Positions 1 through 31,530 are shown, numbered from the stretch's first letter. The stretch is 32,000 nt of DNA from Trichodesmium erythraeum IMS101 (GCF_000014265.1 NC_008312.1:3060001-3092000), one strand, 5' to 3'. The notes: generated from the sequence alone by a model not told the origin. Made by a program: numbers and translations.

Positions 1-22
1 TGTGTTTTTATATCAAAATCAA

Positions 23-10202: not shown

Positions 10203-11100
10203 TTACCAAGGACTACCAACCATAGTAAACCCTGCCCAATAATAAGGATGAGATAAATTTTGATTCTCAATATCTGCTAAGGCCGGTGGTAACACCACGT
10301 CACCATCAACTCCATTTCTCATCAACTTTCCATCTGTAATAGCCACCTTCCCTTGCAACATTGCTAACTGCGCCTGTCTTAACGCCTCTGACTTAACCTT
10401 AACATCATTCAAATGAGTATAAAACTCTGTCATTAACCCCAATGTACCCTCATCATTCACATACCAAACACTTGCTAAAGCTGACTTGACTCCTGCTGCT
10501 ATTGCTAACCCTGCAAACCCTAACTCTGCCTCTTTATTTCCCACGGCAGTGCGACAAGCAGACAATACCAACAAGTCAACTGATGGGTTACCCCAACCCA
10601 ACTCCCGAACTTGGTCTAACTTTATTTGTTCGTCACCCCATAGTTGAATGTAAGAGTTGCTTGGTCTTCCTGCCTTAAATTCTGCATGGGTAGCTAGGTG
10701 AATAATAGAATAGGGATAATTTTGGCGCTCATTTAACAAATTATTGTGGGTAAATTCTGCATTCAAAAATTGACTCCCAAGCCATAAATTTTGGGAAATT
10801 ATTTCTAACTCCACAGGTACTGCTGGCAAAGGATTTTTAGCAATAAATTCACTAGCTCCCATAGCTAATACTTGAGTACCTTGAAGTGGGCGATAATTTG
10901 TATCCATTAAACTGATACTAGGAATTAAACTTAGGCTATATTTTTCAATTAAAAATTGTTCTCCATCATGTAATGCTGCTACTGGTAAAGCCCGTAAACT
11001 TTCACTCATACTAAACAGTAAAGTATCAATATTTGCTGCTTCTAATTCTGCGGATATAGGTGTAATGAACCAATCATATAATTTTTTTGCTGGTGATAAA
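10203..11100 (-). other. CHAT (caspase-like) domain with candidate His/Cys dyad
   Basis: Candidate catalytic His in HLATHAEF (codon 10686-10688, aa 3139). Candidate catalytic Cys in LVLSACRTA (codon 10554-10556, aa 3183). The terminal YYWAGF motif is typical of CHAT C-termini. Confidence 0.8.
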
Positions 11101-20100: not shown

Positions 20101-20102
20101 AT
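10203..20102 (-). CDS. giant TpsA-type (filamentous haemagglutinin family) exoprotein with internal P-domain and C-terminal CHAT protease domain
   Basis: 3299-aa ORF. It begins with a signal-like N-terminus (LHRVTALSLILGTLATAPANSQ) followed by TPS secretion-domain motifs (ANLFHSFDKFNV, LFLMNPAGIMFG). Long beta-helix-type repeats (NAGQI.IE...L) follow. The internal P-domain contains HTYTGDLDVSLKSPQGK...TWTLKVTD. The C-terminal CHAT domain contains HLATHAEF and LLVLSACRTA. Confidence 0.9.
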   Translation of the reverse strand: MNQYYKDKSFYTLRLHRVTALSLILGTLATAPANSQPITPAKDGTNTTVTPQGQQFNIKGGTRSGANLFHSFDKFNVHSGQTANFVTTPDTRNVLGRVKGGASYINGLIQVLGSSSNLFLMNPAGIMFGRDARLNVPASFSVTTATGIGFDQNNFWFKAMGTNDYSNLLGSPSGYRFDVSKPGSIVNEGNLTLNSGENLTLLGGAVVNTGKLSSPGGNITVTAVEGGSTLKISQPGHVLSLEVEVSHTMSLQDGENISNIDPLSLPELLAGGGDIVEATSVIVKENGDVVLTGSNTMVAETPGTATISGKIDVSTTASSLQDEGDVPTAGQVNVWGDRVALIDTNIKADGKNGGGTVLIGGDFQGLGIVPNSQHTFVNNNSFISADAITNGDGGQVRIWSDGITNFAGNISAKGGTSSGNGGLVKVGGKEQLIFDGKVDVTAALGTEGTILLDPESVTVGEDNSEGEKEIVEENSEVSETENTDNYDGEIVEENSEVSETENTDNLEDKETENPLDPFPADENSDVTISADNLGELSGNVIIDADNDITINERIETDSSVELKAGRSININADIDTKSGNGNIDLFGNNDEMNLANRSDGKGSINQLDGTFLNAGSGGINIKLGSLGEVGDINLGNLRTTGKVLVDANGGNIVRVSENSLINAGSVLFRTSGNGGIGFVGEPLRLDVQNLEAVSGSGGVFFESLKNVNIGGVSEDVVGIATFGGDVDVKSAGNVTLNETISTNGTEESREITDPGGGINIEAAGDIVATGSGIKGGKEGVSMSGTNIRINDEFDETSGDADVKLSATNDIVVEDIEDDVLEFMPGSGEIEFRADKDGDGFGLVKMLDNKPDVGSYPDVFDNGADTIKTNGRGLTIAGAGLVLGNIDTSWFPVYSGGELLKAIDVDEGGAIPPEGTEGTATFTFTVDGDLGTVENIDVRFSAAHTYTGDLDVSLKSPQGKAVKLFASVGRSGDNFQDTVLDDDGSRIIGLGSAPFDGTYRPQESLADFNGENPQGTWTLKVTDTYPSADNGILYRAGEQAPWGTAIGTQLLLRNPLVQSGGGNGGAINLEATHSDISVGNIRSFSKTADGGRIDLKANNNIITGLINSSSVQRNGGAIKLVASGNIITQDLYSYSDSYAGNLADGGAIELVAGGNITTQDLYSYSYSIEGNSRNGGHIFVEANGDITIQGINSSSHSIEGNSGNGGAVSIDGDSNVTATQDLYSYSHSSKGNSGNGGFVSIDAGSNVTATQGINSSSHSIEGNSGNGGFVSVQARINITTQKINSYSLSKKKSGNGGTIDLVAGGNITTQYLNASSRSEKGDSGNGGAIDLDAGDSITTQDLNASSGSEYGDSGDGGDISAKADSDINTQDINSYSDSEYGDSADGGAINLVAGNDIKTQDINAYSRSEKGDSGNGGVVYVQADGNVTIQGLISYSDSSKGSSGDGGTIDLVAGGDITTQDINSFSFSYRGDSGNGGAIDLVAGGDITTQDINSFSFSNGGNSGNGGAVNLHAKQINPPEGGNTEKLKINTFSVGKKESGEGKGGDVSITTNNVSNTEILTVSSGSGSGKITIESQAQEPLQINDSSIITSAQVTLGIRGSETRIDVREKGKSGNVSINSSGDLNLKNVTIESDTKSDQAAGDVNIYSGDNITLNNTDIISTTNSQGNAGQITLETNQNIELTNNSKILASTEGDGNAGQINIEANNLILDQNTKLITETARAGNPGDINIQAKTIEIGEGAKASTTVLTGSTSTGEGGNITINTNELNITGKLGIFAETEASKNAGVLRISPYETNPNLDITFKNEGFISASTSSIGNGGNIFIQAPENIKITGQGFIATETSGAGDAGIIDIKTNNLRISNGVKINASTEDQGNAGEIKINTTEFTLEKGTSLTTETNSAGLAGNIEINTEKLTIGQNAQISATAREGSTNNEAGGNITINANNLEISGKLGIFAETAGESPAGTLTLNPYKNNPNLNIEFQEKGFISARTKSLGKGGDINISAPENINITGDGRITVEAKGSGDAGIINIETENLKIAENTKISASTSDSGNGGEIKINSSETFQLQGKILTETTGTGDGGIINIEAGEIIAPNSRISAKSTDAGNAGTIDITAQGDITTGVVTSAAKNDIETADGGSISITSEQGKINATRAIQSFSEGGSAGDVTLKAQTDITAKTISSHGKQEGGQITITSETGNIDTSSGNFLANYSGGGDAGDITMEAPQGNITTNDIYSYADGDGGQISIKAGNNINIKVNSNIISASEPPNEGNSDKQGQGGDITLEAGNNINTTTANIYSGANEGDTGTIDITADNAIETGKIDLVSGFVRQQEKVNENFTIIPKPEGEATQGKAGDIRLRSRNSTIDTTGGTINSRSPDGTGDIIINAKGNITTGKLEASALNPDKPTTGGDVNITSEQGEINATQNIETFSEQGTAGDINITAVGQIQTNNILSQGMERGGNIQVKSKRGEIQSRGNIDSYSEQGRGGNVKVDAPERVNLANVSSYGMTESGDLIIQSQQAEVNTGNITTQAPEGDSGRIVINGTEVGTGNLSSIARTSAGEINVEATDGSIATYDIEMISGGTVGALTLRATENITTEDVTQNAGEGNVDINIESGRDQNIGNTTQIAKTGDTNNVQTAGRDQNSGNVNQNSGGNANNIQTAGRDQNIGQVTQTAGGNTKNIQTAGRDQNIGQVTQTAGGNTKNIQTAGRDQNIGQVTQTAGGNTKNIQTAGRDQNIGQVTQNAENNTINIQTASGEQNIGQINQTFGNEYINIQGQEINQNLDHSSAISNNNVPNNKVLNQEKLSNNNNNNIENNSTTNSSNNKNILSNFTQSQRSELISTSTPSNNNQTTNTNTAQEQTESSINSTTDTQKILNIIDTVNTNSLTVATGSDQVITILEKSRTKEYSNYFGTDFKEQLLSTKNVREILADMASKTGKESAVVYINAYPEELQIVLYTKDGQPILKTIPKANRKKLEKVVINFLKFMTNPAYRNTNSYLSPAKKLYDWFITPISAELEAANIDTLLFSMSESLRALPVAALHDGEQFLIEKYSLSLIPSISLMDTNYRPLQGTQVLAMGASEFIAKNPLPAVPVELEIISQNLWLGSQFLNAEFTHNNLLNERQNYPYSIIHLATHAEFKAGRPSNSYIQLWGDEQIKLDQVRELGWGNPSVDLLVLSACRTAVGNKEAELGFAGLAIAAGVKSALASVWYVNDEGTLGLMTEFYTHLNDVKVKSEALRQAQLAMLQGKVAITDGKLMRNGVDGDVVLPPALADIENQNLSHPYYWAGFTMVGSPW
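11775..12250 (-). repeat. 69-bp (23-aa) in-frame tandem repeat, ~7 units, three of them nucleotide-identical
   Basis: Unit starts at 11871, 11940, 12009 and 12078 are exactly 69 bp apart and identical until ~12117. Degenerate units flank them. The encoded unit is NIQTAGRDQNIGQVTQTAGGNTK. Confidence 0.95.
15565..16925 (-). repeat. ~15 tandem 90-bp (30-aa) coding repeats
   Basis: The encoded unit is GGAIDLVAGGDITTQDINS(F/Y)S(F/D)S..GDSGN. Adjacent copies at ~15615 and ~15705 are near-identical at the DNA level, and older copies are diverged. Confidence 0.85.
17000..17350 (-). other. proprotein-convertase P-domain-like insert
   Basis: ATFTFTVDGDLGTVENIDVRFSAAHTYTGDLDVSLKSPQGKAVKLF...GDNFQDTVLDDDG...FDGTYRPQESLADFNGENPQGTWTLKVTDTYPSADNG matches the characteristic P-domain pattern. 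No subtilisin/kexin catalytic domain is adjacent. Confidence 0.7.
18587..18699 (-). repeat. 60-bp in-frame tandem duplication (2 copies)
   Basis: 18587-18639 is identical to 18647-18699. It encodes EIVEENSEVSETENTDN twice, within an acidic linker. Confidence 0.95.
19650..19997 (-). other. TPS (haemagglutination-activity / two-partner secretion) domain
   Basis: QFNIKGGTRSGANLFHSFDKFNV...NVLGRVKGG..S.INGLIQV...NLFLMNPAGIMFG matches the conserved TpsA N-terminal secretion-domain pattern. Confidence 0.8.
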
Positions 20103-20945
20103 TGTTAAAAATCCCCATGATCTATTAAACCTTTAGTTTTCAACCAGGCTTATAGGCTGTAATACTATTTCTTCAAGGTAATGCTACAGTTGGAAAGCCC
20201 CAAAATAATTATCAATAACTATGTATAAAATTTAAGGCTACATCTTAAGCCAAAATAATTAATTATTTTAATCAGCAAGTATTATTGAGTTATTATATTA
20301 TATTACATCTTTATGTAAATAAAACAATATTAGATAATTTTTAATATCAAAGGATTTGAGTATTATTTATGCAAAAAATCCTATGAAAGTTTTTGCAAAA
20401 CTGTACCAATTAAATATCTCTGAAAAAAAAGTCTAAATCTTTTAATTTATCCTTATAAATTTGCTCACGTAAATAAACTACAGTACTCCTAATTAACTAT
20501 TTAATTATACCAATGCTACCAGATGTGCTGATCTAATTAACACCAAAGTAATACTCTTATACTCAAGCTTTTAGCTGCGTTCGACACTTCATATAAGCTA
20601 ATATTTTTAATGAGTTGATTTTATGAATTTTTAGGGCTCACTCAGGAATGGCTTTTGACTGTTGAATAGATTAATTTTGACTTGCATGCATTACTATACA
20701 AGCCAAGAGCGTGTTAATTATTCTGATCTGAAATACCAAAAATTGTACTAATATCCGAATATCTCCCGAGACCAGATCAATATTGGTAGCAAACATTAAT
20801 AGATTTCATATTATTTTTACAGACCTAGCATAGAACCTTCTTACCTTTAAATACTTTCCATGCCAGGTTTCTACTTACTCTCAATACAATAAAAAACTTT
20901 TAATAATCCCTTATACCGTAACTGCTTCCCTTTGTTTGCTTGATT

Positions 20946-22391
20946 TTACCCTCGTTTCAGAGATTTTGTAAATAACCAGAAAGGAATAAAAATACCTACT
21001 ATGACCATTACTAATACAAATAAGAATACAACCCCCCGCACTTTTGCAGGTAGCTTTGGTCCAACCCAGGGAAATGTGTAAGATTCTGGTTGAGATTTGA
21101 TATCACGGCCCTCATCGGGAGACTTAACGATGACTTGAACGTTATGTGCGGAACCGCGATCTGAACTTGTTGGTTGAACATAGGTAATTTCATACTCGTT
21201 AAGCATGGCGTTGAGGAAGTCAGTTAAAGCATTAGCCACATCATTAGCGCTAGCAGAAAATTCGTGGACTCCTCTAGTAATTTCAGCAATTCTGACCAAG
21301 GACTGTTGATCGACAAATTCTTCGCTAATTTGTTTTAATCTTTTGTAGTTAGTTATATCTGCAACCGGTAAATCATCTTTCAACAAATATAGATTTTCGA
21401 TATTGGGCTCATCCTTTAAATTGTACTCTTGCTTTAATTCTTGGGCGGTTTTACCGTAACCTATAGTATTTACAGTAATATGAGAATTTTCTTCTAATGC
21501 TGGGATAAGTTGGGTTTCAAAATGTTCTCTCTCTGCCTCTGCTTCTGTTTGATATCTTTTTCTTTTTTGTGAATTTGCATAGATGCTGTGATAGCCATCA
21601 GAAAGCAAAATAATTGATAACCTTGGTTCCGGTTCTTTTGAATCTGTTGTTTCCAGCGAATCTGCTTTTGGAGGGTTAAAACGAGGCTCATTTTCGTCCC
21701 CTAAAAATCTTACTGCTGCCATCAAAGGATCGTAAATATTTGTCGCTCCACAAATATCTTTTGGAGCTGTTTCTTGTAGTTCCTTCAGAATATTTTCAAT
21801 TTCGTCACTTCCTGCTGGTTTAAACTCATTGAGTGTTTTCCTGCTGACTTTTTTTCCCACACAACTTCCCCCACTTTCACTAAAAGGTACGATCGCTATT
21901 TTAGTTTTTTGGCTCCGTCCAGCCACATCCTTACTAAATTTTTGAATCGCTTCAATGGCTCCCTTTAATTTACTTTTACCTGAGCATTGAGAAGATCTTT
22001 CATCCCAACTACCCCTTTCCTCGCATCGCTTCATGCTACCGCTAAAATCTAATAAGACAATTACCCAAGCTGGAGGTAGTTTTTCTGGGGCAGGGGTTGT
22101 CCATTTTTTATTACCTAATCCTAGTTCTTGGCACTCTTGGTCTTGGGAACAAACTCTCAAAGTAATACTTTTTTCTGGTAATCGCATTACGGCTTTATTA
22201 TTGCGATCAAATGCTTGAAAGCGTAAGGCTACACTCCCGTCATCTTTATCTGGTTTTGCTTGAATAATTTCTACTCTTTCGACTTGAGCAAAACTAGGAT
22301 GACTCCCAGAAAACAATAATAGCAAAGATAGACTAACCTTGGGGGTCCAAAAAGCGATTGTAGTAAATAAATCTAAAAAGTTTTTGATCAT
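20946..22391 (-). CDS. exported von Willebrand factor A (vWA) domain protein with intact MIDAS and a C-terminal TM anchor (cluster gene 7)
   Basis: MIDAS DxSxS is present as VLLDFSGSM (DFSGS at 22035-22049), plus GATNIYDPL (Thr) and IILLSDGYH (Asp). N-terminal signal-like sequence: VSLSLLLLFSGSHPSFA-QV. C-terminal helix: GVVFLFVLVMVIVGIFIPFWLF, followed by TKSLKRG. I prefer the ATG at 22391 (AGGGAA 7-8 nt upstream) over the ORF-track ATG at 22412, which has no SD. Confidence 0.85.
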   Translation of the reverse strand: MIKNFLDLFTTIAFWTPKVSLSLLLLFSGSHPSFAQVERVEIIQAKPDKDDGSVALRFQAFDRNNKAVMRLPEKSITLRVCSQDQECQELGLGNKKWTTPAPEKLPPAWVIVLLDFSGSMKRCEERGSWDERSSQCSGKSKLKGAIEAIQKFSKDVAGRSQKTKIAIVPFSESGGSCVGKKVSRKTLNEFKPAGSDEIENILKELQETAPKDICGATNIYDPLMAAVRFLGDENEPRFNPPKADSLETTDSKEPEPRLSIILLSDGYHSIYANSQKRKRYQTEAEAEREHFETQLIPALEENSHITVNTIGYGKTAQELKQEYNLKDEPNIENLYLLKDDLPVADITNYKRLKQISEEFVDQQSLVRIAEITRGVHEFSASANDVANALTDFLNAMLNEYEITYVQPTSSDRGSAHNVQVIVKSPDEGRDIKSQPESYTFPWVGPKLPAKVRGVVFLFVLVMVIVGIFIPFWLFTKSLKRG

Positions 22392-23421
22392 TATAATTTC
22401 CCTGTGGAACATGAAATGTAATCATATCATTATGTTTTAATTTAATCGGCCCTGGGGTTGTTAAACGTAGACCTCTATACTCTATTATTCCATAAAATTT
22501 AGGTTGGGGAAATAATAAAGTTTGACCGGGTTTTAACTTTAGTTCGGCCACATTTTCTGGCAATTCTGGAAGATAAATATGTACGTCTTGTCCAGAACCA
22601 ATTTTTATTTTTCCTCTGGCGGGTAATTGAATAGATAATCCCTCTTCAATTCGATCGGCATAATCATCGCTAACAAATTTTAATGGGGGTTTTTTTGTCT
22701 TTTCGATGTGGGGATAATTAGTAGTTTGAGTTAGCAGCGACGAACCATAAAGATACTCAAAACCGGCACCTGCTCTGAGAGCGATCGTGTGACTGGGAGA
22801 GGTGGAAAAACTTAAGACTAAACCTAACAAACCTCCCAAAAAAGAAAATCCTATAGGTTCTTCCCAAGCTTTTAATGCTTCTGGAATTTCACCTCCAAAG
22901 TTTTGTCGCAACTTTTCAAATATTAATGCTGCAGCTAAGGCGGTCAAACTACTAGCAATAAAACTAGTCCAGAAACGCTGTTGATAACGGCGAGAATCTC
23001 CTGCTTCTATGCTACGCCATCGCCAAGTTAATCCTTCTCCTAGACCTACTGCTACTCCAATTAAAACCCACCCTATTATTCTAACAAAAAAGTCTGGTAC
23101 TTGAAAAACATGATCCCGCAGTTGAGGGTGGAGCCAAAGTTGTACTATACCTCCAGAGGTAGTGCCGATCAATAAACCAAGTCCGGCAGCAATTGTTAAG
23201 GGGATAAAACCTGTTTTTAAGTTACGTTGGAATCTGGTGGGGTTGCTGAGAAAAAGATCTATGGCGACTATGCCTATTGCCAGGAAAATTGCCACGCAGG
23301 GAAATAGGCCTAGTTCGGGGATGTTTTTTAACCATTGAAGGTCGCTAATGATAACATGACCAAGGATCCACCCGGTGAGGGCGGATGCGATTCCTGATGA
23401 TATGTAAAGGTAGGTTCTCAT
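22333..23421 (-). CDS. six-TM membrane protein with C-terminal degenerate FHA-like beta domain (cluster gene 6)
   Basis: Six hydrophobic helices occupy aa 5-235. K/R-rich loops 2 and 4 (NPTRFQRNLK, WRWRSIEAGDSRRYQQR) imply N-in/C-in topology. The C-terminal ~95 aa (GKIKIGSGQDVHIYLPE...IKLKHNDMITF...FRFIY) follow the FHA beta-sandwich spacing but lack the canonical G-R, S-x-x-H and N-G residues. Confidence 0.8.
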   Translation of the reverse strand: MRTYLYISSGIASALTGWILGHVIISDLQWLKNIPELGLFPCVAIFLAIGIVAIDLFLSNPTRFQRNLKTGFIPLTIAAGLGLLIGTTSGGIVQLWLHPQLRDHVFQVPDFFVRIIGWVLIGVAVGLGEGLTWRWRSIEAGDSRRYQQRFWTSFIASSLTALAAALIFEKLRQNFGGEIPEALKAWEEPIGFSFLGGLLGLVLSFSTSPSHTIALRAGAGFEYLYGSSLLTQTTNYPHIEKTKKPPLKFVSDDYADRIEEGLSIQLPARGKIKIGSGQDVHIYLPELPENVAELKLKPGQTLLFPQPKFYGIIEYRGLRLTTPGPIKLKHNDMITFHVPQGNYNDQKLFRFIYYNRFLDPQG

Positions 23422-23475
23422 GTTTATTTTTTAAGGGTGAGTTTATTGGGAACTATTGTTTGGAATTAGCGATCG

Positions 23476-26151
23476 CTATTCTAGCAATTGTCTTTGGATA
23501 TCTTGTTTTAACCTCTGATATGTTTCTTCACTATAATGAATTATGCCATCGCCTCCATTTTGGTATTCTCGAATAGAATTAACAAACTTTTCCACCTCTT
23601 GTGGGTTTCCTTTTTCTATAGCACCTGCATAATCTGTTATTCCTACAAAAGTATTTTTGATAGCATTGATAATCTGGCTGCGATCAAACTTTTCTTGTCT
23701 TAAGTTTTCATCTTCTAACAACTCTTCTATCAGTTTTTCTAAAGCTGGCTTAGTTTTGTTAGCAAAATTGAATCTTTCTTCATATTGTGTTTTTATTTCT
23801 TCTTTTAACCTTTGATATGTTTGTTTACCATAATTAATTATGCCATCACCTCCATTTTGGTATTGTTGAATAGAATTAACAAACTTTTCTACCTCTTTTG
23901 GCTTTCCTTCTTCTATGGTAGCTGTATAATCTGTTATTCCCACAAAAGTATTTTTGATAGCATTAATAATCTGGATGCGGTCAATATTTTTTTGTCTTAA
24001 ACTGTTATCTTGCAACAACTCTTCTATCAGTTTTTCTAAAGCTGGCTTCGTTCTATTAGCAAAGTTGAACAGTAAAGTATTGTTTACTTCTTTTTCAATT
24101 CTTTCATCTGTTTCAAAATTATCATCTATGTATCCATACCCTTTTTCTCCTGTGTTGGCTTGATACCAATAGATAGCCTCTATCAATTGCTTTTTGTGAT
24201 TTTCATTGCCTTGAATTGCGGAGCTATAATCAAGGTTCGGGTTGCCAATAATGGCTTTAATTTCCTTTATTACTTGATTGCGCATTATTTGTGGATCCGC
24301 TTGATTAAACTTTTCCGTTAGTTGATTTGTAAGTCTCTTGACAAGAGCCTCCATCACTGTAGCAGTTGTTGAAAATTCACTAGATGCCTTAGTCATAGGA
24401 GGAATTATTTCAACTTGTCTCGCAGCATTTAATCCTTCTTGATAACCAACTTGATAGCCCTTGTCATAGCCTTCTTGTTCTCCTGCTTCTCTTGCCTGTT
24501 CTAATGTTTCCCCATTTGAGTTTTTTAACCCTATTTTACCTTTACTTTGTAAACCTAGCATATAAGAAAACAAGTTAGTTAGCACAAGAATGAATATTGC
24601 CGCCAAAGATAAAGAATATCTTCTCAACAAGTTAATCAGATGCTCATCCCAAGTAACTTCTCTGTTTAGTGTCAAACCCCAAAGATCTGATTTATCTTTG
24701 TTTTTAAAAGCTTTCAGAAATAAATTTTTCGGTACCACCCCTTTACTGACTTGGTAAAAATAGGAAGCTAACTGATAGTCACCCAACCTCTCAAACAAAT
24801 CCGCAAAAGGTTGATAATAGCTATAACGATAGTTGGGTCCCGGAAGCCCACTTTGCAAGTTTTTCCAAATCGAATCTCCACAAGCAAACGAAGGTTCCGA
24901 CGGGCTATCATCAGAAGAGTTCAAATAGTTATCAATAGCTTCTAAATCATCTCTGACATTTTGCAAAAGTGAGGCGCGATATGACGACCAAAGACTTTTT
25001 TGTGCAGTTAATAACCAACTGAATGCTGGAATTGATATCTTCTTCTTCAATATTTGCTCCAGGACACTCTTCATGCTTCCATCAATTAATGGCTCTAGTT
25101 GTAAAATATGTTTTTTAAGTTGTCCTTGAAACTCAAGAGAAACTTTTTGCTTATTATCCCCTTTTCCCTTATTTTTGCCATCAATACCAAACCATTCTAG
25201 ATACTCAGGCAAAGTATCTGGAATAATTATCGCCCTTAAAGTTAAAAGTCGCACCATTTGAGGGCTATAATTTCTCTGCTTAATCCTAGTATGGGCACCT
25301 TGATCATCAAAGATTGTTTGGCAATGGTCTGAAGTTACTTGCTCGTTCTGTAAAAGAGCTTGAATCCATTCCTGCTTAATTTGCGAACCACCTATCAAAC
25401 CTTTTATTGCTAATTCAATAGAGGGTTCATCAACACTTGATAGATTATCAATTGAAGCATTCCCTATTCTTATTAGATCTTGATACGCTTTTTCATCAGC
25501 CGCTTGAATAACTAGAAATCTTCTTGCACGTTCCACAGCCTCCACATCATATGCCCAAGATACAAGTTGACCATTAGCTATCTTCTCAGCTACTGCATTA
25601 ATTGTCTGTAGATCGGAAACTTGTCCTGGTTGAAGAATCAAAGCTCGTTGATAGTTGCTTGTCAAAGAATTTAGCTCTGAAGGTAAGGTTACTAGGGGTT
25701 TATTAGAAATATTGTGATAGTTCGGCTTGCCAATTTCCTTAATTTCCGATGGATTGAAAATTGGTAGTCGTCCGTATTTTTGCGAATAATTATCTATCGC
25801 ATCTAATATTACCCAGAGTCGATCTACTCCCTGGCATAAAATATATCGATAAAAAGAGTTAAAAAGCCCGTAGTCATCCCTTCCTGGAGTCACTACCGCT
25901 ACCACCGACCAAGCGGGATCTGCATTTTTGCCCCTAACCTCTCGTCCTACAAAAGTAGGTTTTTGACTATGACTATCCTTGGATACCTCAAACATTTTGT
26001 TAGCGATCGCTAGTTGGACAACATAGGGAATTTGCGGCAAGGTTGAGTTCATATATTCTCCTACCTTATACCCCCGCGATCTCCAACTGCTATCGGGCAA
26101 TGTTTCTACATTTATACCAGTGCTGAATTCGTGTATATTATAAGTAGGCAT
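23476..26151 (-). CDS. bitopic membrane protein, paralog 2 (cluster gene 5); unknown ~505-aa cytoplasmic region, one TM, three peptidoglycan-binding-like modules; function unknown
   Basis: 891-aa ORF. Its N-terminal 505 aa are highly similar to the upstream paralog. TM helix YSLSLAAIFILVLTNLFSYMLGL lies at ~24555-24623. The C-terminus has three ~100-aa modules ending in the pattern A/S-I-x-x-Y-Q-(6-10)-DG-I-I-x(4-6)-T-x-x-x-L. Confidence 0.9.
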   Translation of the reverse strand: MPTYNIHEFSTGINVETLPDSSWRSRGYKVGEYMNSTLPQIPYVVQLAIANKMFEVSKDSHSQKPTFVGREVRGKNADPAWSVVAVVTPGRDDYGLFNSFYRYILCQGVDRLWVILDAIDNYSQKYGRLPIFNPSEIKEIGKPNYHNISNKPLVTLPSELNSLTSNYQRALILQPGQVSDLQTINAVAEKIANGQLVSWAYDVEAVERARRFLVIQAADEKAYQDLIRIGNASIDNLSSVDEPSIELAIKGLIGGSQIKQEWIQALLQNEQVTSDHCQTIFDDQGAHTRIKQRNYSPQMVRLLTLRAIIIPDTLPEYLEWFGIDGKNKGKGDNKQKVSLEFQGQLKKHILQLEPLIDGSMKSVLEQILKKKISIPAFSWLLTAQKSLWSSYRASLLQNVRDDLEAIDNYLNSSDDSPSEPSFACGDSIWKNLQSGLPGPNYRYSYYQPFADLFERLGDYQLASYFYQVSKGVVPKNLFLKAFKNKDKSDLWGLTLNREVTWDEHLINLLRRYSLSLAAIFILVLTNLFSYMLGLQSKGKIGLKNSNGETLEQAREAGEQEGYDKGYQVGYQEGLNAARQVEIIPPMTKASSEFSTTATVMEALVKRLTNQLTEKFNQADPQIMRNQVIKEIKAIIGNPNLDYSSAIQGNENHKKQLIEAIYWYQANTGEKGYGYIDDNFETDERIEKEVNNTLLFNFANRTKPALEKLIEELLQDNSLRQKNIDRIQIINAIKNTFVGITDYTATIEEGKPKEVEKFVNSIQQYQNGGDGIINYGKQTYQRLKEEIKTQYEERFNFANKTKPALEKLIEELLEDENLRQEKFDRSQIINAIKNTFVGITDYAGAIEKGNPQEVEKFVNSIREYQNGGDGIIHYSEETYQRLKQDIQRQLLE
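23500..24075 (-). repeat. 297-bp (99-aa) in-frame tandem duplication inside paralog 2
   Basis: For example, 23508-23552 aligns with 23805-23850 and 23547-23772 aligns with 23844-24069, at a constant 297-bp offset and high identity by eye. It encodes F-N-F-A-N-(K/R)-T-K-P-A-L-E-K-L-I-E-E-L-L...Y-Q-N-G-G-D-G-I-I. Confidence 0.9.
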
Positions 26152-26207
26152 TTGCTTTAATCCTTATCTAATTCTTGATTGCGTTTGCCAGTATAAAGCT
26201 AATAAAT
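26152..26207 (-). pseudogene. 56-nt relic of the 3' end of GTPase gene 3 (duplication scar) immediately upstream of paralog 2
   Basis: 26152-26207 matches 29045-29100 at 54 of 56 positions. The original encodes ...IYWLCTGKRNQELDKD*. In the relic a C-to-T change turns TGG (Trp) into TAG. Similarity stops abruptly at 26208/29101. Confidence 0.85.
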
Positions 26208-26358
26208 TTTCAAATATTAATCCTACCACTAAAGCATCAAACTATTATTAGTAAAGCCAGCCCCAAAATATTTTTTATTGTAACGGACTATTCCTATGGC
26301 AAGGAAGATTACTACCCAGGAAAATAGGGTGAATGCTATTTCTAATAAGATTTGAAGG

Positions 26359-26427
26359 TAGGTTATCATTATGTTTATTGATTTTCTGATGTGAAGATAG
26401 GTTATCATTATGTTTATTGATTTTCTG
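26359..26427. repeat. 30-bp direct repeat (39-bp period) spanning the stop codon of paralog 1
   Basis: TAGGTTATCATTATGTTTATTGATTTTCTG occurs at 26359-26388 and again at 26398-27427-equivalent position 26398-26427. The second copy contains the TAA stop (26414-26416). Confidence 0.9.
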
Positions 26428-29044
26428 GGGAATTTTTATATTTGTTGGGGTTATTTGCCAATTCATTTTTTACCTGTTCCAGCAAAATATTAAACGTATT
26501 TTGAATTGTCCTATCTAAAGGTTTTTTAGGCTCATTAATTATCCCATCAGGTTCTCCTTGAATCTTGTTTTTTTGTTGGTATTTATAAATAGCAATAACT
26601 AAGGCGTTTTTACCCTCAGGTATCGCTTCTCGTGCCTTTTTATATTCAAAATTCTTCACATTACCAATAGTCTCGCGAATAGCTTGGTGAATCGCTTCTT
26701 GATCAAGTCCTAAATATCTCAACTCTGATATAATTCGACTGATTGCTTCGTAAGTTATCTCGTTAAACTTGTCCTTACTAGTAGCAATCTTTTTTTGATC
26801 TTCTGTCATTTCTGGTAAACAATTCTCTGGCCAATCTTGCCATTTCCAACTTAGAGATTCAGCTACGTTACACTTCAATAAATTAGCTGTATTATCATCA
26901 GGATTTATATATCCATTAGGCGGATTTTTTAGCTTTTCCTGTTTGTTCTGTTGGTATGAATAGATGGCTTTTACCCATTTTTTGCGAGCCTCTTTTCTTT
27001 TTTGCTTCCCTACTATCAAAAAATATAGTTTAGTAGTTGCTTGCTCATAATTAAGTGCTGAATCATTAGCAAGAATCTTCTGAATTTCTTGGACAAACTT
27101 TTGTTTTTCTAATTCCTCTTGCTTTGCCACTTCTAAAGAAGCTAGATCGGATGTGATTTTATCAATTGCTCTGATACTCTGAGGGAAATTGTCAAGTGCT
27201 ATATTCATCTCTTTTTCTAATATATTCCTTGGAATAGAAGGACTTGGACTTGGACTTGGACTTGGACTTAGACTTAGATTTGGACTTGGACTTATATTTG
27301 GACTTGGACTTGGACTTGGTGTCGTATTCTTGATTTTGTTAATAGCATCTTCTTGTCCCTTTAAATAACCCTGACTATATGCTATTCGTAGCTGTTGTTC
27401 CCCTGGTTTTTGTGCTTGAGGTGTTTGATTTTGTCCTTTACCTATCAAATATCCGATTGTCAAAAAAACAATTGCTATAGTCAAACGCAAAGAATTTTTG
27501 ATCAAGCAACGAATCAGATGTTCTTCCCAAGAAATTTCTCTCTTTAGTGTCAAACCCCAAAGATCTGATTTGTCTTCGTTGTTTTTAAGAGCTTTCAGAA
27601 ATAAATTTTTCGGCACCACCCCCTTACTGACTTGGTAAAAATAGGAAGCTAACTCATAGTCACGCAACCTCTCAAACAAATCCGCAAAAGGTTGATAATA
27701 GCTACCACGATAGTTGGGTTTCCGCAGCTCACTTTGCAATTTTTTCCAAATCGAATCTCCACAAGCAAACGAAGGTTCCGACGGGCTATCATCAGATTTC
27801 AAATTGTGATCAATAGTTTCTAAATCATTTCTGACATTTTTCACGAGCGAGGGGCGATACGACGACCAAAGGCTTTTTTGTGCAGTTAACAACCAACTGA
27901 ATGCTGGAATTGATATCTTCTTCTTCAATATTTGCTCCAGGATACTTTTCATGCTTTCATCAATTAACGGCTTTAGTTGTAAAATATATCTTTGAAGTTT
28001 TCCTTGAAACGCAAGAGAAACTTTTTGCTTATTATCCTCTTTTCTCTTATTTTTGCCATCAATACCAAACCATTCGAGATACTCAGGTAAAGTCTCTGGA
28101 AGAATTATTGCCCTTAAAGTTAAAAGTCGCACCATTTGAGCACTAGAATTTCTCTGCTTAATCCCAGTATGGGCACCCCGATCATCAAAGATTATTTTCC
28201 AATGCTCTGAAGTTACTTGATCGTCCTGTAAAAGAGCTTGAATCCATTCCTGCTTAATTTGCGAACCGCTGCTCAAAGCTTTTATTGCTGTTTCAATGGC
28301 CGCTCCATCAACATGTGATGGAAGGGTGGCTTTGGGATTATTAATTGAAGCATTCCCTATTTTCCTTAGACCTTGATACGCTTTTTCATCAGCCGCTTGA
28401 ATAACTAGAAATCTTTCTGCATCTTCCACCGCCTCCACATCGTATGCCCAAGATACAGGTTGACCATTAGCTATCTTCTCAGCCATTGCATTAATTGTCT
28501 GTAGATCAGACACTTTTCCTGGTTGAAGAATCAAAGGTAGTTGATGGTTACCTGCCAAAGCATTTAGCTCTGAAGGTAAGGTTACTAGGGGCTTATTAGA
28601 AATATTGTGATGGTTCGGCTTGCCAATTTCTTTAATTTCCAATGGATTGAAAATTGGTGGTTGTCCGTATTGTTGCCAATAACTATTGATCTCATCTAAT
28701 ATTACCCAGAGTCGATCTACTCCCTGACATAAAAAATATCGATAAAAAGAATTAAAACGCCCGTATTCATCTCCTCCTGGAGTGACTACCGCTACCACTG
28801 ACCAACCGGGAGCTCCATTGTTGCCCCTAACCTCTCGTCCTACAAAAGTAGGTTTTTGACTATGACGATCCTTGGATACCTCAAACATTTTGTTAGCGAT
28901 CGCTCGTTCAACAACTAAGGGAATTTGCGGCAAGGTTAAGTTCATATATTCTCCTACCTTATACCCCCGCGATCTCCAACTGCCATCGGGCAATTTTTCT
29001 ACATTTATACCAGTGCTGAATTCGTGTATATTATAAGTATGCAT
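26414..29044 (-). CDS. bitopic membrane protein, paralog 1 (cluster gene 4); same N-terminal region, one TM, Ser-Pro linker, two divergent peptidoglycan-binding-like modules; function unknown
   Basis: 876-aa ORF whose ATG lies 5 nt after the stop of GTPase 3. TM helix LRLTIAIVFLTIGYLIG lies at ~27443-27493, followed by the linker SPSPSPNISPSPNLSLSPSPSPSPSPS. The modules contain AIYSYQQNK...NGYINPDDNT and AIYKYQQKNKIQGEPDGIINEPKKPLDRT. Confidence 0.9.
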   Translation of the reverse strand: MHTYNIHEFSTGINVEKLPDGSWRSRGYKVGEYMNLTLPQIPLVVERAIANKMFEVSKDRHSQKPTFVGREVRGNNGAPGWSVVAVVTPGGDEYGRFNSFYRYFLCQGVDRLWVILDEINSYWQQYGQPPIFNPLEIKEIGKPNHHNISNKPLVTLPSELNALAGNHQLPLILQPGKVSDLQTINAMAEKIANGQPVSWAYDVEAVEDAERFLVIQAADEKAYQGLRKIGNASINNPKATLPSHVDGAAIETAIKALSSGSQIKQEWIQALLQDDQVTSEHWKIIFDDRGAHTGIKQRNSSAQMVRLLTLRAIILPETLPEYLEWFGIDGKNKRKEDNKQKVSLAFQGKLQRYILQLKPLIDESMKSILEQILKKKISIPAFSWLLTAQKSLWSSYRPSLVKNVRNDLETIDHNLKSDDSPSEPSFACGDSIWKKLQSELRKPNYRGSYYQPFADLFERLRDYELASYFYQVSKGVVPKNLFLKALKNNEDKSDLWGLTLKREISWEEHLIRCLIKNSLRLTIAIVFLTIGYLIGKGQNQTPQAQKPGEQQLRIAYSQGYLKGQEDAINKIKNTTPSPSPSPNISPSPNLSLSPSPSPSPSPSIPRNILEKEMNIALDNFPQSIRAIDKITSDLASLEVAKQEELEKQKFVQEIQKILANDSALNYEQATTKLYFLIVGKQKRKEARKKWVKAIYSYQQNKQEKLKNPPNGYINPDDNTANLLKCNVAESLSWKWQDWPENCLPEMTEDQKKIATSKDKFNEITYEAISRIISELRYLGLDQEAIHQAIRETIGNVKNFEYKKAREAIPEGKNALVIAIYKYQQKNKIQGEPDGIINEPKKPLDRTIQNTFNILLEQVKNELANNPNKYKNSPENQ
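27238..27320 (-). repeat. GGACTT hexanucleotide microsatellite-like tract encoding the (Ser-Pro)n linker of paralog 1
   Basis: Runs of GGACTTGGACTTGGACTT are interrupted by TTAGAC and TTATAT variants. Confidence 0.9.
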
Positions 29045-29049
29045 TTGCT

Positions 29050-29946
29050 TTAATCCTTATCTAATTCTTGATTGCGTTTGCCAGTACAAAGCCAATAAAT
29101 AGGCGAAACTAAACCAAAAGGCCGCCACATTTTAGGTTTTTCTAAAACCGATGAAACCCCACCCCGATCACGCTCTATTTGTATGGAATTAGGTCTGGGA
29201 AATCTATTTCCTAAAACTCCAAAAGCTGAAACGGCAAAATAGTCTATATTACCAGAACCCCCTCGTTCCCAAAACTCCAGCTTTCTGCAAGTTTCTCGGA
29301 AGCGAGCTTGAGCCACATATTTTGGTTTCTGTCGATTTATCCACAAATCGGCCAATTCGCACTTACTCAAAACCAGAGCAATTCTCCGCTTTTGAATTTG
29401 TGCCTCAGAGCGATCCAACTCTACCAAAAGCTTCTCGATCGCTCTAGCATATTCCCCATCTTTCTGATGGGCCGTTCCATCAATCAATAACAAAATTCCC
29501 GATGCCAACAAACAGTCTTCTAAATAGTCCTTAAATAAAGGCAAATCAGTTTGATTCAGCAACTCGCTGAAAAATTCTCCCGAATAATCCTTGCAACTTA
29601 TATCTAAGTTAACCAAAGACTTCTTTCTATCCAATACCAACTCTTTTTTTAGAGTTATCCTCAAGCTATAATTCTTCAGAGTATAAACATTATCAAGCAA
29701 CGGAGTTTGTTTCATGGGTTCCCCTTGTTCCAAAATATCCCGAGCTTTTTTGATTAACTCTTCTCCATCTTTATTTGAAGCAGTTACCGCCTCAACCAAA
29801 CGGGTATTTTGAGAATTTGGCCACCTAGCCAAAGCGGCCATATAAGTAGTCTTACCAGCAGAGCGATCGCCTATCAGCCGCAGGACACCAGATAAATTTT
29901 GCTCTTGAGATTCTTCACCTTTATCTTTAAATAGAGATTTAAACAC
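29050..29946 (-). CDS. small P-loop GTPase-like protein 3 (cluster gene 3)
   Basis: G1/Walker A GDRSAGKT (29848-29871), G3-like DYSGE (DYSG at 29578-29589) and a G4-position SKCE (29356-29367). The GTG start overlaps the stop of gene 2 by 8 nt, with AGAGGA ~9 nt upstream. The C-terminal WRPFGLVSPIYWLCTGKR motif is shared with GTPase 2. Confidence 0.85.
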   Translation of the reverse strand: MFKSLFKDKGEESQEQNLSGVLRLIGDRSAGKTTYMAALARWPNSQNTRLVEAVTASNKDGEELIKKARDILEQGEPMKQTPLLDNVYTLKNYSLRITLKKELVLDRKKSLVNLDISCKDYSGEFFSELLNQTDLPLFKDYLEDCLLASGILLLIDGTAHQKDGEYARAIEKLLVELDRSEAQIQKRRIALVLSKCELADLWINRQKPKYVAQARFRETCRKLEFWERGGSGNIDYFAVSAFGVLGNRFPRPNSIQIERDRGGVSSVLEKPKMWRPFGLVSPIYWLCTGKRNQELDKD

Positions 29947-30757
29947 CAGATCGCATCCTCTTACCCGTACTTAACCAATATAAGGGCGAAATCAGCCCGT
30001 AGGGTCGCCACTGATGCGGCGATCGTAAAACAGAACGCAGACTCCCCTCCTCATCAGCACGATTCGGACGAGGATTGTTCCTTTCCAGAACCCCAAAAGT
30101 AGATATGGCATAAAATTGTAAATTATTCTTAGGAATCCTCTGGCGCAAAATTTTTCTAGTGCGGGGCAAATGTACTTCAAATAAGTCCAATTCCGGGTCC
30201 AGACGACCAGGCCAAATTTCTCCCCTTTCGCATTTACTCATTGCCACTGCCAGTCGCAAATTTTTTAGGCGATCGCGCCTGTCCATTAAATCCATAAATC
30301 TCCCTATCATCCTCCTGTAAAATTGGTCGTTGCCCAACTCCCATTTATGGAGGAGCAATAAACAGCCAACAATATCTGGAATTAAACATTCATTGAGAAA
30401 TTCTTGATGTATTTCATTAGAAATTCCCGAGGCCAAATCGTCAAAAATTTCCCCTGGATAATCTCGAACCACTAAATTGATTTCCTCTGGTTTGCGCCAC
30501 CTCCTCTTTTTTTCTATTTGAAAAGAATACAACGGTAAATCGTAAACAGTTTTAATTTTGAACCCATCTATCTCTGTCCTCCTTAAAGAATCTCCACTAA
30601 GAATAATATCTTCAGCTTGATTTACTAAATTTTGTGCCTCTTTTGTGATAGGAGTAACTTCAAAATTTTGGTTATGAGTATCCGGCCAATATGCCAGTCC
30701 TGCCAGATAAGTTGTTTTGCCAGAACTCCTCGGTCCGATAATACAAATATTTCCCAT
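29939..30757 (-). CDS. small P-loop GTPase-like protein 2 (cluster gene 2)
   Basis: GGAGGAGGA Shine-Dalgarno just upstream of the ATG. G1 GPRSSGKT (30713-30736), G3-like DYPGE (DYPG at 30452-30463) and a G4-position SKCE (30227-30238). It is a clear paralog of GTPase 3 along its whole length. Confidence 0.85.
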   Translation of the reverse strand: MGNICIIGPRSSGKTTYLAGLAYWPDTHNQNFEVTPITKEAQNLVNQAEDIILSGDSLRRTEIDGFKIKTVYDLPLYSFQIEKKRRWRKPEEINLVVRDYPGEIFDDLASGISNEIHQEFLNECLIPDIVGCLLLLHKWELGNDQFYRRMIGRFMDLMDRRDRLKNLRLAVAMSKCERGEIWPGRLDPELDLFEVHLPRTRKILRQRIPKNNLQFYAISTFGVLERNNPRPNRADEEGSLRSVLRSPHQWRPYGLISPLYWLSTGKRMRSGV

Positions 30758-30770
30758 ATTTCCTCCTCCA

Positions 30771-31517
30771 TTAATTAGCTAAATAACTAGCTAAATAGAT
30801 CCAGGGCAACTCCAGCAAACTACGATCATAGATACTGGTAATAAAACAGCGAACTGATAACCCAGGCCGACTCCTATTTATTTGTGCTATTTGGGATTTT
30901 ACCAATCGAAAATAACTATTAACTACATAATTATGACGCTGAAGCCAATTCATCGAAGAACCATCTGGTCGATAAGCCAACCTTTCCGACTCCTCAGAGA
31001 GATTGCAATTTATTAGATCCGCCTTGTTCAGACAAATAACAATATGCTTGGCCTTAGGACAATCATCACAAAAAAATCTAGCCCAACTCTCAAAGCCATT
31101 ACACCACTGCTTTTGAGTCACAAAATTTGTCACCTCCAGATTAGGCAACAATATTTCCCGATAAGGTGGCAAAATCAGCAAAACCCCCTCGCTTTGCCGG
31201 ACAATTTCTTGAAAAGATTCCCATTCCTGGGGGTGTTCCCACTGCCAAGACCTACGAAAGATTTCCCCTGGAGAGTCGATCCAATCTACGGGAACTTCGT
31301 TTAAACCACTAGGCAACCGTACTTGGAGGTTTAGGGGACGATATTGGATGTTTTGAGTTTGTTTGGCCGTTCCATCGCTATTCAGGAGATTGGCCTTAAG
31401 GTTTTGATAAGTTTGGCCCACCATAGAAACCTGGACGTATTGCCCCTGGGGATTAACTAATTCTAGGGCTAAATGAGTTTTGCCTACCGCGCGATCGCCT
31501 ATATAGACGACTCCCAC
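30771..31517 (-). CDS. small P-loop GTPase 1 with canonical NKxD (cluster gene 1)
   Basis: GTG start. G1 GDRAVGKT (31476-31499), G3 DSPGE (DSPG at 31266-31277) and a canonical G4 NKAD (31017-31028). It is shorter than GTPases 2 and 3 and has a different C-terminus. Confidence 0.85.
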   Translation of the reverse strand: MGVVYIGDRAVGKTHLALELVNPQGQYVQVSMVGQTYQNLKANLLNSDGTAKQTQNIQYRPLNLQVRLPSGLNEVPVDWIDSPGEIFRRSWQWEHPQEWESFQEIVRQSEGVLLILPPYREILLPNLEVTNFVTQKQWCNGFESWARFFCDDCPKAKHIVICLNKADLINCNLSEESERLAYRPDGSSMNWLQRHNYVVNSYFRLVKSQIAQINRSRPGLSVRCFITSIYDRSLLELPWIYLASYLAN

Positions 31518-31522
31518 CTTGA

Positions 31523-31530
31523 TCCTCCCT
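31523..31530 (-). promoter_or_regulatory. Shine-Dalgarno sequence of the first gene of the cluster
   Basis: AGGGAGGA (reverse complement of 31523-31530) lies 5 nt upstream of the GTG at 31517. Confidence 0.7.

Follow-up and report, generated by a model that had tools for sequence, protein, structure and literature searches.

Seven tightly packed, same-strand open reading frames (ORFs) of Trichodesmium erythraeum IMS101 (Tery_1976-Tery_1982; minus strand, positions 20946-31530 of the 32,000-nucleotide (nt) stretch that we analysed, hereafter the window) on balance probably encode a trans-envelope signalling module that is specific to cyanobacteria, has a DO-GTPase switch at its core and is related to the systems described by Kaur, Burroughs, Iyer and Aravind (eLife 2020, PMC7159879; hereafter Kaur et al.), whose DO-GTPase/GAP1 'GTPase-centric' conflict systems are computational predictions. 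We number the genes g1 to g7 from the 5' end. The initial annotation of this DNA had counted a seven-gene cluster; the seven ORFs are present, but they represent only six families, one of them duplicated. Genes g1, g2 and g3 encode GTPases, g4 and its duplicate g5 bitopic membrane proteins, g6 a protein with six transmembrane (TM) helices and a C-terminal FHA fold, and g7 an exported vWA protein. The cluster falls in the GTPase-centric class because g2 and g3 are Pfam DO-GTPase1/2 proteins and g1 is their paralogue, and it appears to be an uncharacterised variant of that predicted class because it has no recognisable GAP1 and no fibronectin type III (FNIII) or GASH protein. Neither PADLOC nor the literature names such a system, as the initial annotation had supposed, but the GTPases do give it a place in the class of Kaur et al.

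Gene order across cyanobacteria

In a pattern scan of one genome per species (185,579 species), we found 121 stretches that encode a relative of the N-terminal module of g4 (N-module). The locus comparisons cover the best 80 of these 121 stretches, in which ORFs were called and then searched with the seven window proteins, and every one of the 80 with an informative record title is cyanobacterial. The order g1-g2-g3-g4-g6-g7, with one to five g4-like ORFs, is collinear and complete on one strand in 41 of the 80 loci, which span Nostocales, Oscillatoriales, Pleurocapsales, Spirulina and Leptolyngbya-like lineages; the majority of the remaining loci are interrupted by contig ends. Since the same one-strand order recurs in so many loci of different species, the arrangement is far beyond chance. 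A few exceptional loci carry one or two GTPase genes rather than three.

The lengths of the junctions recur too. In the window, the genes are separated in order by a 13-nt gap (g1-g2), an 8-nt overlap (g2-g3), a 5-nt gap (g3-g4), a 262-nt gap (g4-g5), a 54-nt gap (g5-g6) and a 59-nt overlap (g6-g7; 80 nt if g7 is read from an upstream ATG), all of which are as first annotated. Elsewhere, the g2-g3 overlap is 8 or 11 nt in 28 loci, the g3-g4 gap is 4 nt in 29 loci and the g6-g7 overlap is 59 or 68 nt in 29 loci. Conserved order and conserved junction lengths together are strong evidence for one co-translated unit, and Tery_1976-1982 thus evidently form one operon, as had been proposed. The proposal had been staked on orthologues being syntenic in other genomes, and this synteny holds.

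Plasmids carry copies of the operon in Trichormus variabilis, Nostoc linckia, Tolypothrix, Microchaete, Gloeothece and Nostoc ATCC 53789. Plasmid B of Trichormus variabilis (35.8 kb) carries about 15 genes of the set, which make up about half of the replicon and whose core genes are all annotated 'hypothetical'. Plasmid pNsp_h of Nostoc sp. ATCC 53789 (locus L082, 4298-17057) carries a divergent variant of the entire core, at 33-38% identity, comprising three GTPases, one protein each resembling g4 and g6, and two vWA proteins; this variant adjoins a divergently transcribed dynamin-family gene. At least three assemblies carry two or three loci each, namely MAG82 (two separate loci, L001/L014), Dulcicalothrix desertica (two, L056/L067) and the metagenome-assembled genome Co_metawrap_1709 (three, L042/L045/L057). 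The operon occurs in bloom-forming and nitrogen-fixing genera such as Trichodesmium, Dolichospermum, Nodularia, Microcoleus and Limnospira; Synechocystis, Synechococcus and Prochlorococcus are absent among the organism names in the family and locus listings. A tblastn search of plasmids with g3, aimed at remote DO-GTPase/GAP1 loci, returned only cyanobacterial copies and noise.

Components of the operon

All three GTPases share an unusual P-loop, G-[DP]-R-x-x-G-K-T, and a Walker B motif of the form D-x-x-G-E (Walker B DSPGE in g1, RDYPGE in g2 and KDYSGE in g3, with P-loops GDRAVGKT, GPRSSGKTT and GDRSAGKTT, respectively). The family consensus of the Walker B motif is DtPGE for g1, RDYPGE for g2 and KDYxGE for g3, at least 90% conserved in 61-66 orthologues each, and the nucleotide-binding motifs in general reach the same level (those of g1 in 61 sequences). 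The guanine-specificity motif is the canonical NKAD in g1 and [ST]KCE in g2 and g3 (SKCE in both window proteins). The glutamate of the Walker B motif, present in all three, is a hallmark of the DO-GTPase family (Kaur et al. 2020, PMC7159879). Against Pfam, g2 scores 27.6 bits as DO-GTPase1, with which its precomputed annotation concurs, and g3 scores 42.5 bits as DO-GTPase2 and 34.6 bits as DO-GTPase1 (cut-off 27 each); UniProt automatically names g3 a 'Double-GTPase 2 domain-containing protein'. For g1, the DO-GTPase1, Roc and Ras matches are sub-threshold, and they recur in six of six sequences (the window protein and five orthologues). Profile-profile alignment (hhalign) shows g2 and g3 to be clear paralogues (E 3.4e-54) and ties g1 to both at 96-97% probability, including 96.7% against the g3 family (E 3.7e-10, 194 columns). 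We read g1-g3 as three paralogous cytoplasmic switches of the DO-GTPase clade. Their initial description as TRAFAC GTPases can therefore be narrowed: three GTPases are indeed present, but g2 and g3 are of the DO-GTPase1/2 type and g1 is a divergent paralogue rather than a generic member. Two further features of g1 are recurrent sub-threshold matches to Gtr1/RagA at about amino acids (aa) 195-240 (E 0.03-0.07, four of six sequences) and a conserved tail, RCFITSIYxRSLLELPWIYL. No AAA+ or MoxR domain was found in the cluster proteins with Pfam, the sole AAA matches being weak ones to the GTPase P-loops.

The g4 gene always follows the GTPase genes directly. Its product (100% identical to ABG51230) begins with the N-module (aa 1-505), which a TM helix (about aa 512-534) separates from an (SP)n linker and a helical ectodomain that is divergent. 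We placed this TM helix by inspection of the sequence; it falls under the 1.6 Kyte-Doolittle threshold that the equivalent helix of g5 exceeds. Low-complexity sequence or a FliH/Yae1-like glycine-zipper stretch lies between the TM helix and the repeats (g5 has a weak Yae1_N/FliH-like match at aa 545-605), and the ectodomains of g4 and g5 are built of helical repeats with an AIYxYQ...DGII motif. Among 52 homologues, mean pairwise identity is 47% for the N-module versus 23% for the region after the TM helix, so that g4 appears to join a constant inside part to a variable outside part that evolves about twice as fast. Searches with g4 returned 442 matches in a clustered set of 5.8 billion sequences and, in an exhaustive profile search of 1.84 billion representatives, 571 proteins, of which the best 150 were listed; all listed matches with an organism name are cyanobacterial, and a search with the divergent Nostoc plasmid variant was likewise confined to cyanobacteria.

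The N-module of g4 had been called unrecognisable. No match to g4 was found in Pfam, NCBIfam or PADLOC, and PDB sequences searched with a profile yielded nothing beyond coiled-coil matches at chance level; the module is nevertheless a defined cyanobacterial family with a confident fold. The AlphaFold2 (AF2) model of aa 1-510, built on a 54-sequence alignment, has a predicted local distance difference test (pLDDT) score of 88.5 and a predicted template-modelling score (pTM) of 0.77. Its parts are, from the N-terminus, a beta-beta-alpha-beta-beta-beta-alpha domain, an alpha/beta domain in the centre and a helical bundle at the C-terminus; R102 and R311 are invariant in the family. In the model, the order of strands and helices in the first domain resembles that of longin domains. 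A Foldseek search of the PDB with the module found nothing at E<=0.001. The best matches were TagF entries (6iz8, 2qnu and 9t0n; E 0.024, probability 0.87, TM-score about 0.26, about 135 residues), followed by PAS/LOV domains at low probability; other low-probability entries were complexes that presumably contain longin domains. TagF is a type VI secretion system (T6SS) repressor that binds Fha and blocks T6SS assembly (PMC5995506; bioRxiv 10.64898/2025.12.08.692957). The match is a suggestive lead because the partner bound by TagF, Fha, is an FHA protein.

The two bitopic paralogues of the initial annotation are well founded, and g5 is evidently a recent tandem copy of g4: the two proteins share 82% identity in the N-module, with divergence setting in past the TM helix (BLASTP alignment), and their genes share stretches of 91-94% DNA identity over the N-terminal half. 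The 262-nt gap between them is a duplication scar, as had been noted. Over its first 56 nt (26152-26207) the gap copies 29045-29100, which hold the 3' end of g3 and the spacer behind it, at 96% identity, and further pieces match the 5' end of g6 at 75-81% (blastn). In the ectodomain of g5, a 99-aa module occurs twice, encoded by a 297-nt unit in two copies of 86% identity (23487-24069). An array of 13 GGACTT units (27240-27319) encodes the (SP)n linker of g4; this array and the 297-nt repeat are potentially length-variable regions. A 39-nt unit is also present twice (95% identity, 26349-26427), spans the stop codon of g4 and encodes a repeated peptide of a small overlapping ORF (26275-26466). 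The ectodomain repeats had been likened to peptidoglycan-binding modules, which is borne out in part: PG_binding_1 matches weakly in three of 20 g4 homologues (best E 1.7e-4) but remains sub-threshold, and neither g4 nor g5 of the window matches it.

Gene g6 had been described as a six-TM protein with a degenerate FHA-like domain, and structure prediction agrees. In the AF2 model (pLDDT 86.4), a C-terminal beta-sandwich at about aa 255-357 comes after six long helices, and nearly all top Foldseek matches in the PDB are FHA domains (Rad53 FHA1, Rv0020c and OdhI/GarA) at probability 1.0 and TM-scores up to 0.78, normalised to the target. By its model, the C-terminal domain is thus a true FHA fold, although g6 itself has no match, to FHA or otherwise, in Pfam (E<=1), NCBIfam or PADLOC. 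Canonical FHA domains bind phosphothreonine through Gly-Arg, Ser-x-x-His and Asn-Gly residues (Durocher and Jackson 2002). The g6 family has IGS instead of the canonical GR and P-x-H-x-A instead of S-x-x-H; the window protein has PENVA at the latter site and YRG where its relatives have VNG. Mean column identity across the family is 57%. The last 13 residues, RF[VI]YYNRFLDPQ[AG] (the RFVYYNRFLDPQ tail), are invariant in 30 of 30 sequences and modelled as disordered, a pattern typical of a docking motif. This tail lies in the 59-nt stretch (22333-22391) that also encodes, in another frame, the start of the g7 signal peptide; an overlap of this length recurs across the phylum, so that the dual coding may add to the conservation of the tail. 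The positive-inside rule applied to the loops between the AF2 helices predicts that both termini of g6, and hence its FHA domain, are cytoplasmic.

The product of g7 carries, in order, a Sec-type signal peptide (...SHPSFA/QV), a vWA domain, a beta-rich domain, a C-terminal TM anchor (hydropathy 3.0) and a basic tail, KSLKRG. Its metal-ion-dependent adhesion site (MIDAS; D115, S117, S119, T217 and D265) is complete and at least 90% conserved in 47 sequences, so that signal peptide, MIDAS and anchor are all as the initial annotation had them. The Pfam match to VWA_2 is sub-threshold (22.8 bits), and VWA/VWA_2 matches recur in six of six sequences (window protein and five orthologues); a weak match to TIGR03436 (E 1.5e-6) covers the beta-rich domain. 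Two cysteines conserved in the family would suit a location outside the cytoplasm. Most databases carry g7 in its 481-aa form, on which the 59-nt overlap is reckoned, and name it 'VWA domain-containing protein'. Since the start of g7 overlaps the end of g6, translational coupling of the two is suggested. Overall, g7 fits an exported, membrane-anchored, metal-dependent adhesion module. Prediction bears out the topology proposed earlier for the whole set: inside lie the GTPases, the FHA domain of g6 and the 505-aa module, and outside the vWA protein and the C-terminal regions of g4 and g5.

The cluster had been taken as delimited, with no kinase, phosphatase or other effector. This is correct for Trichodesmium, where the genes described here adjoin the operon on neither side, but in about 30 loci of other cyanobacteria the same strand continues past g7 (for example, L028 14420-21462 and L081 16536-25530), and a kinase and PP2C are among what follows. 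This downstream extension comprises a 300-aa protein of unknown type in one to three copies, an ARC6/ZipN-like IMS-domain protein, a class-A beta-lactamase-like serine hydrolase (Beta-lactamase2), one or two larger (600-aa) vWA proteins, a conserved small protein (127-197 aa), a protein that joins a double zinc ribbon to a canonical FHA domain (ZnR-FHA; Pfam FHA E 9.7e-18), a pseudokinase-PP2C protein and a Ser/Thr kinase fused to an FGE-sulfatase domain (STK-FGE). The sole Pfam match of the small protein is a sub-threshold one to the PH domain; it looks ubiquitin-like by eye, with no family match in support.

Relation to known systems and rival explanations

The cluster resembles the DO-GTPase systems in its Pfam DO-GTPase1/2 domains, in the glutamate after the Walker B glycine and in its paralogous GTPase copies. 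As in those systems, a large multi-domain partner that can be membrane-tethered lies directly downstream, wall-directed ectodomains and vWA components are present, relatives show the kinase/PP2C/vWA theme, and the carriers are enriched in multicellular or colonial bacteria. Kaur et al. report membrane-tethered partners, peptidoglycan-binding ectodomains and vWA components, with a kinase/PP2C/vWA theme in the N2 type (PMC7159879). There are also differences. The GTPase paralogues number three here, not one or two, and they have no N-terminal zinc ribbons or TM segments, which are found in 60% and 13% of DO-GTPases, respectively (PMC7159879). No GAP1-N, -M or -C domain can be detected in the downstream partner by comparing hidden Markov models (HMMs) with the sequence, and Pfam finds no FNIII-repeat or GASH protein among the seven window proteins and the scanned downstream proteins of relatives. 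Two constant components are added, the six-TM FHA-fold protein and the exported, anchored vWA protein, and the cluster is confined to cyanobacteria, a phylum not listed for DO-GTPase systems in Kaur et al. What varies among relatives is the copy number of g4, its ectodomain and the downstream gene set.

Based on these features, we can present a rough proposal for how the module might work. The periplasmic vWA protein, through metal-dependent ligand capture, and the wall-directed ectodomains of g4 would sense an extracytoplasmic cue, for which contact with a phage or other invader, peptidoglycan damage and a ligand of a neighbouring cell are candidates. The signal would cross the membrane to the N-module of g4, a GTPase-facing platform in the usual position of GAP1, whose longin/TagF-like first domain would suit either regulating GTPases or binding an FHA domain. 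The N-module would then set the nucleotide state or the assembly of a hetero-oligomer of the three GTPases, and g6 would be recruited through its FHA-like domain and invariant tail, to act as a membrane output itself or as an adaptor to the vWA, FHA, PP2C, kinase and hydrolase genes that follow the operon in other cyanobacteria. A GTP-switched trans-envelope sensor, as first suggested, is thus a plausible function.

Several observations weigh against this reading. A number of Okeania loci have g1-g4 and neither g6 nor g7 within 9 kb, so the six genes are not obligatorily linked. The g6 protein of the window has also lost residues that its relatives keep in the binding site (His to Asn, Asn to Arg), the resemblance of the g4 N-module to TagF is weak and short, and no effector is encoded in the Trichodesmium locus. 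GAP1-N1, -N2, -M and -C are unmatched in g4, g5 and 20 homologues (hmmscan, E<=1), in an HMM-versus-sequence comparison that assumes these models to be in the Pfam copy used. PADLOC-DB v2 identifies no defence protein, its two matches to g3 being at chance level (E 0.01 and 0.02), and a scan of viral contigs and a phage genome collection found no relative. The topology comes from hydropathy, the positive-inside rule and AF2 helices, and the literature yielded neither a paper that cites the locus tags or treats these genes nor an experiment on any member.

A tentative, less probable possibility is that the N-module of g4 is a new TagF/longin-like regulator and not GAP1, and that the six-gene core is a separate, cyanobacteria-specific trans-envelope GTPase machine. 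Were this true, the periplasmic vWA protein and wall-bound ectodomains would survey the wall, and a heterotrimeric switch would act through the FHA-TM protein, wired in most lineages to a Ser/Thr phosphorylation module; abortive infection, controlled cell death and filament breakage are possible responses.

We think it unlikely that the cluster is a canonical DO-GTPase/GAP1-N2 conflict system in which the N-module of g4 is a GAP1 too divergent for the Pfam HMMs. The idea has some appeal, as GAP1 lies directly downstream of DO-GTPase genes, has three globular parts and may have a C-terminal TM helix (PMC7159879), and g4 has that exact position and likewise three globular parts and a TM helix; the PG-binding ectodomains, vWA partners and kinase/PP2C/vWA theme listed for the N2 type, and the automatic naming of g3 as Double-GTPase 2, point the same way. 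The failure of hmmscan to detect GAP1 extends, however, to the divergent Nostoc plasmid variant of g4 (E<=0.5), and no member of the family has any precomputed Pfam domain. Moreover, the profile search with g4 did not spill into the large GAP1 families, since only 571 of 1.84 billion representatives were returned, FNIII-repeat and GASH proteins were not found in any scanned protein, and GAP1-N2 systems are found mainly in actinobacteria, firmicutes, planctomycetes, verrucomicrobia and chloroflexi (PMC7159879).

A housekeeping or developmental envelope machine, concerned with wall remodelling, division-site or septal architecture, adhesion, sheath formation or motility, seems to us doubtful. 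It would suit a family found only in cyanobacteria, mostly in filamentous or aggregate-forming genera, the PG_binding_1-like motif of the ectodomain, the ARC6/ZipN-like and class-A beta-lactamase-like neighbours in other genomes and the strong conservation of all core proteins, of which g6 is an example. It is difficult to reconcile with the patchy occurrence (121 stretches in all the species genomes scanned), the copies on small plasmids, the assemblies with more than one locus, the variable copy number of g4, the fast-evolving ectodomain and the want of well-known unicellular model genera (Synechocystis, Synechococcus and Prochlorococcus) among the organism names listed. Taken together, the plasmid copies, patchiness, multi-locus genomes, variable g4 copies and fast-evolving ectodomain make an accessory role, in conflict or in surveillance of the envelope, more likely than a housekeeping one, and such a role would match the themes that Kaur et al. 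propose for membrane-proximal DO-GTPase systems.

The PpkA/PppA/Fha/TagF pathway of the T6SS offers a second comparison. The two share a vWA domain in the periplasm, an FHA domain in the cytoplasm and an alpha+beta domain of TagF-like type; relatives of the operon add PP2C and a Ser/Thr kinase, and in both the link between periplasm and cytoplasm would be post-translational. PpkA, however, joins a kinase, a TM helix and a periplasmic vWA domain, whereas here the vWA domain is in a separate exported protein. Here also the FHA domain is fused to six TM helices and has no phosphothreonine-binding Arg and Ser, and GTPases, absent from the T6SS pathway, are central. No T6SS core protein, kinase or PP2C was found among the window ORFs scanned against Pfam. 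A post-translational checkpoint like TagF-Fha-PpkA that controls secretion or assembly of another apparatus, possibly of the exoprotein with two-partner secretion (TPS) and CHAT domains encoded on the same strand nearby (10203-20102), is improbable: the TagF-like first domain of g4, the FHA and vWA modules, the PP2C, kinase and ZnR-FHA genes of other cyanobacteria and the binding of Fha by TagF fit it, but the resemblance to TagF falls short of significance, the window holds neither a T6SS nor a TpsB gene, the closest relatives checked have no ORF of comparable size beside the operon (ORFs sized, not compared) and an 843-bp AT-rich spacer separates g7 from the TPS/CHAT gene.

Other comparisons are looser. 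MglA-MglB, and the Rag GTPases with GATOR1 or FLCN, are pairs of a small GTPase and a longin or roadblock regulator. The cluster resembles them in placing a TRAFAC GTPase beside a protein whose first domain is longin-type in its AF2 secondary-structure order, and the Rag pairs also in the sub-threshold Gtr1/RagA matches of g1 orthologues; unlike in those pairs, there is no sequence match or significant structural match to MglB, roadblock or DENN. Triads of vWA, PP2C and Ser/Thr kinase of the TerY-P type have reportedly been described by Anantharaman, Iyer and Aravind (2012), and the downstream extension in other cyanobacteria likewise has vWA, PP2C, STK and FHA on the same strand, although the triad genes are not in the Trichodesmium locus and the triads lack GTPases and g4-like and g6-like proteins. 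The vWA-MoxR ternary systems of Kaur et al. combine a MoxR AAA+ ATPase, a vWA protein and a third partner (VMAP, iSTAND and others); the cluster proteins include no MoxR AAA+ ATPase. The ExeA/GspA layout to which the cluster had been compared does not apply, as NTPase, TM helix and PG_binding_1 are not in one polypeptide and g4 and g5 have no P-loop or NTPase match in Pfam or NCBIfam.

DO-GTPase systems are among the least understood of the predicted NTP-dependent conflict systems of multicellular bacteria, and we know of none that has been studied experimentally. Because it has a fixed six-family core, a clear topology, two confident models and plasmid copies in cultivated strains (for example, AVA_RS27770-27835 of Trichormus variabilis ATCC 29413), the operon is a practical entry point to the coupling of GTPases to the envelope. 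Bloom dynamics could be affected if the system controls resistance to phage, cell death or the integrity of filaments, and a longin/TagF-like regulator beside small GTPases would be of interest for the prokaryotic roots of eukaryotic GTPase regulation.

Coordinates, flanking DNA and neighbouring genes

Table 1. Features of the Tery_1976-Tery_1982 operon, in window coordinates.
Feature	Coordinates	Strand	Length	Description	Basis
Shine-Dalgarno-like AGGGAGGA	31523..31530	-		5 nt before the GTG of g1	read from sequence
g1 (Tery_1982, ABG51233)	30771..31517	-	248 aa, GTG start	divergent DO-GTPase-clade GTPase	
g2 (Tery_1981)	29939..30757	-	272 aa	DO-GTPase1-type GTPase	
g3 (Tery_1980)	29050..29946	-	298 aa	DO-GTPase2/1-type GTPase	
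g4 (Tery_1979)	26414..29044	-	876 aa	bitopic protein	
g4 N-module, aa 1-505	27530..29044	-		predicted cytoplasmic	AF2 model, invariant columns
g4-g5 intergenic region	26152..26413	-		duplication scar	blastn against window, Tandem Repeats Finder
g5 (Tery_1978)	23476..26151	-	891 aa	tandem paralogue of g4	
g6 (Tery_1977)	22333..23421	-	362 aa	six TM helices and predicted FHA fold	
g6 FHA-like domain	22351..22659	-		degenerate phosphothreonine-binding site	alignment, consensus
g7 (Tery_1976)	20946..22391	-	481 aa	exported vWA protein; longest ORF starts at 22412	

The flanks are as the initial annotation had described them. The strong ribosome-binding site that it placed before g1 is AGGGAGGA, so that the outer coordinate of the operon, 31530, is that of this site and not of a start codon. 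Upstream, 483 bp contain a single unsupported ORF of 106 aa on the opposite strand, with no Pfam match, in keeping with the ORF-poor stretch of more than 480 bp noted before; in Trichodesmium contigs, the nearest called gene upstream ends 688 bp before the start of g1. The 843 bp downstream (20103-20945) are 29% GC and, as claimed, free of ORFs, with none of 60 aa or more. Rfam gave no match in the window, this spacer included, and scans for promoters and terminators did not exceed what shuffled sequence gives. Within the region, it is the spacer that has the best match to a sigma-70-like promoter (20319-20292, 11 of 12 positions), which could drive the TPS/CHAT gene.

That gene, on the same strand 843 bp 3' of g7, encodes a 3299-aa protein that has a TPS domain at its N-terminus and a CHAT peptidase domain at its C-terminus, besides a P_proprotein domain and long degenerate repeats; the window shows no gene for a TpsB transporter. 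We considered the TPS/CHAT gene as a member of the system and rejected it, there being no flanking ORF of comparable size in the closest relatives checked, whose flanking ORFs were compared by size. Upstream of the operon, the Trichodesmium neighbours are a 198-aa unknown protein, NadE, a DUF928 protein and a CHASE2-cyclase. The 198-aa protein was considered as the counterpart of the small 127-197-aa extension protein and likewise rejected (BLASTP E 34).

Farther away in the window, a 1594-aa protein (4492-9276, minus strand) combines calcium-binding repeats of the RTX type with nine or more pre-peptidase C-terminal (PPC) domains; it also matches the Por_Secre_tail sorting domain internally, which is unusual company in a cyanobacterium. 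At the window start (2-3909, plus strand), an AMP-binding (fatty acyl-AMP ligase-like) gene runs off the end and is followed by a gene for an acyl carrier protein (ACP)-aminotransferase (AONS-like) fusion; this pair looks like a small lipid or secondary-metabolite module.

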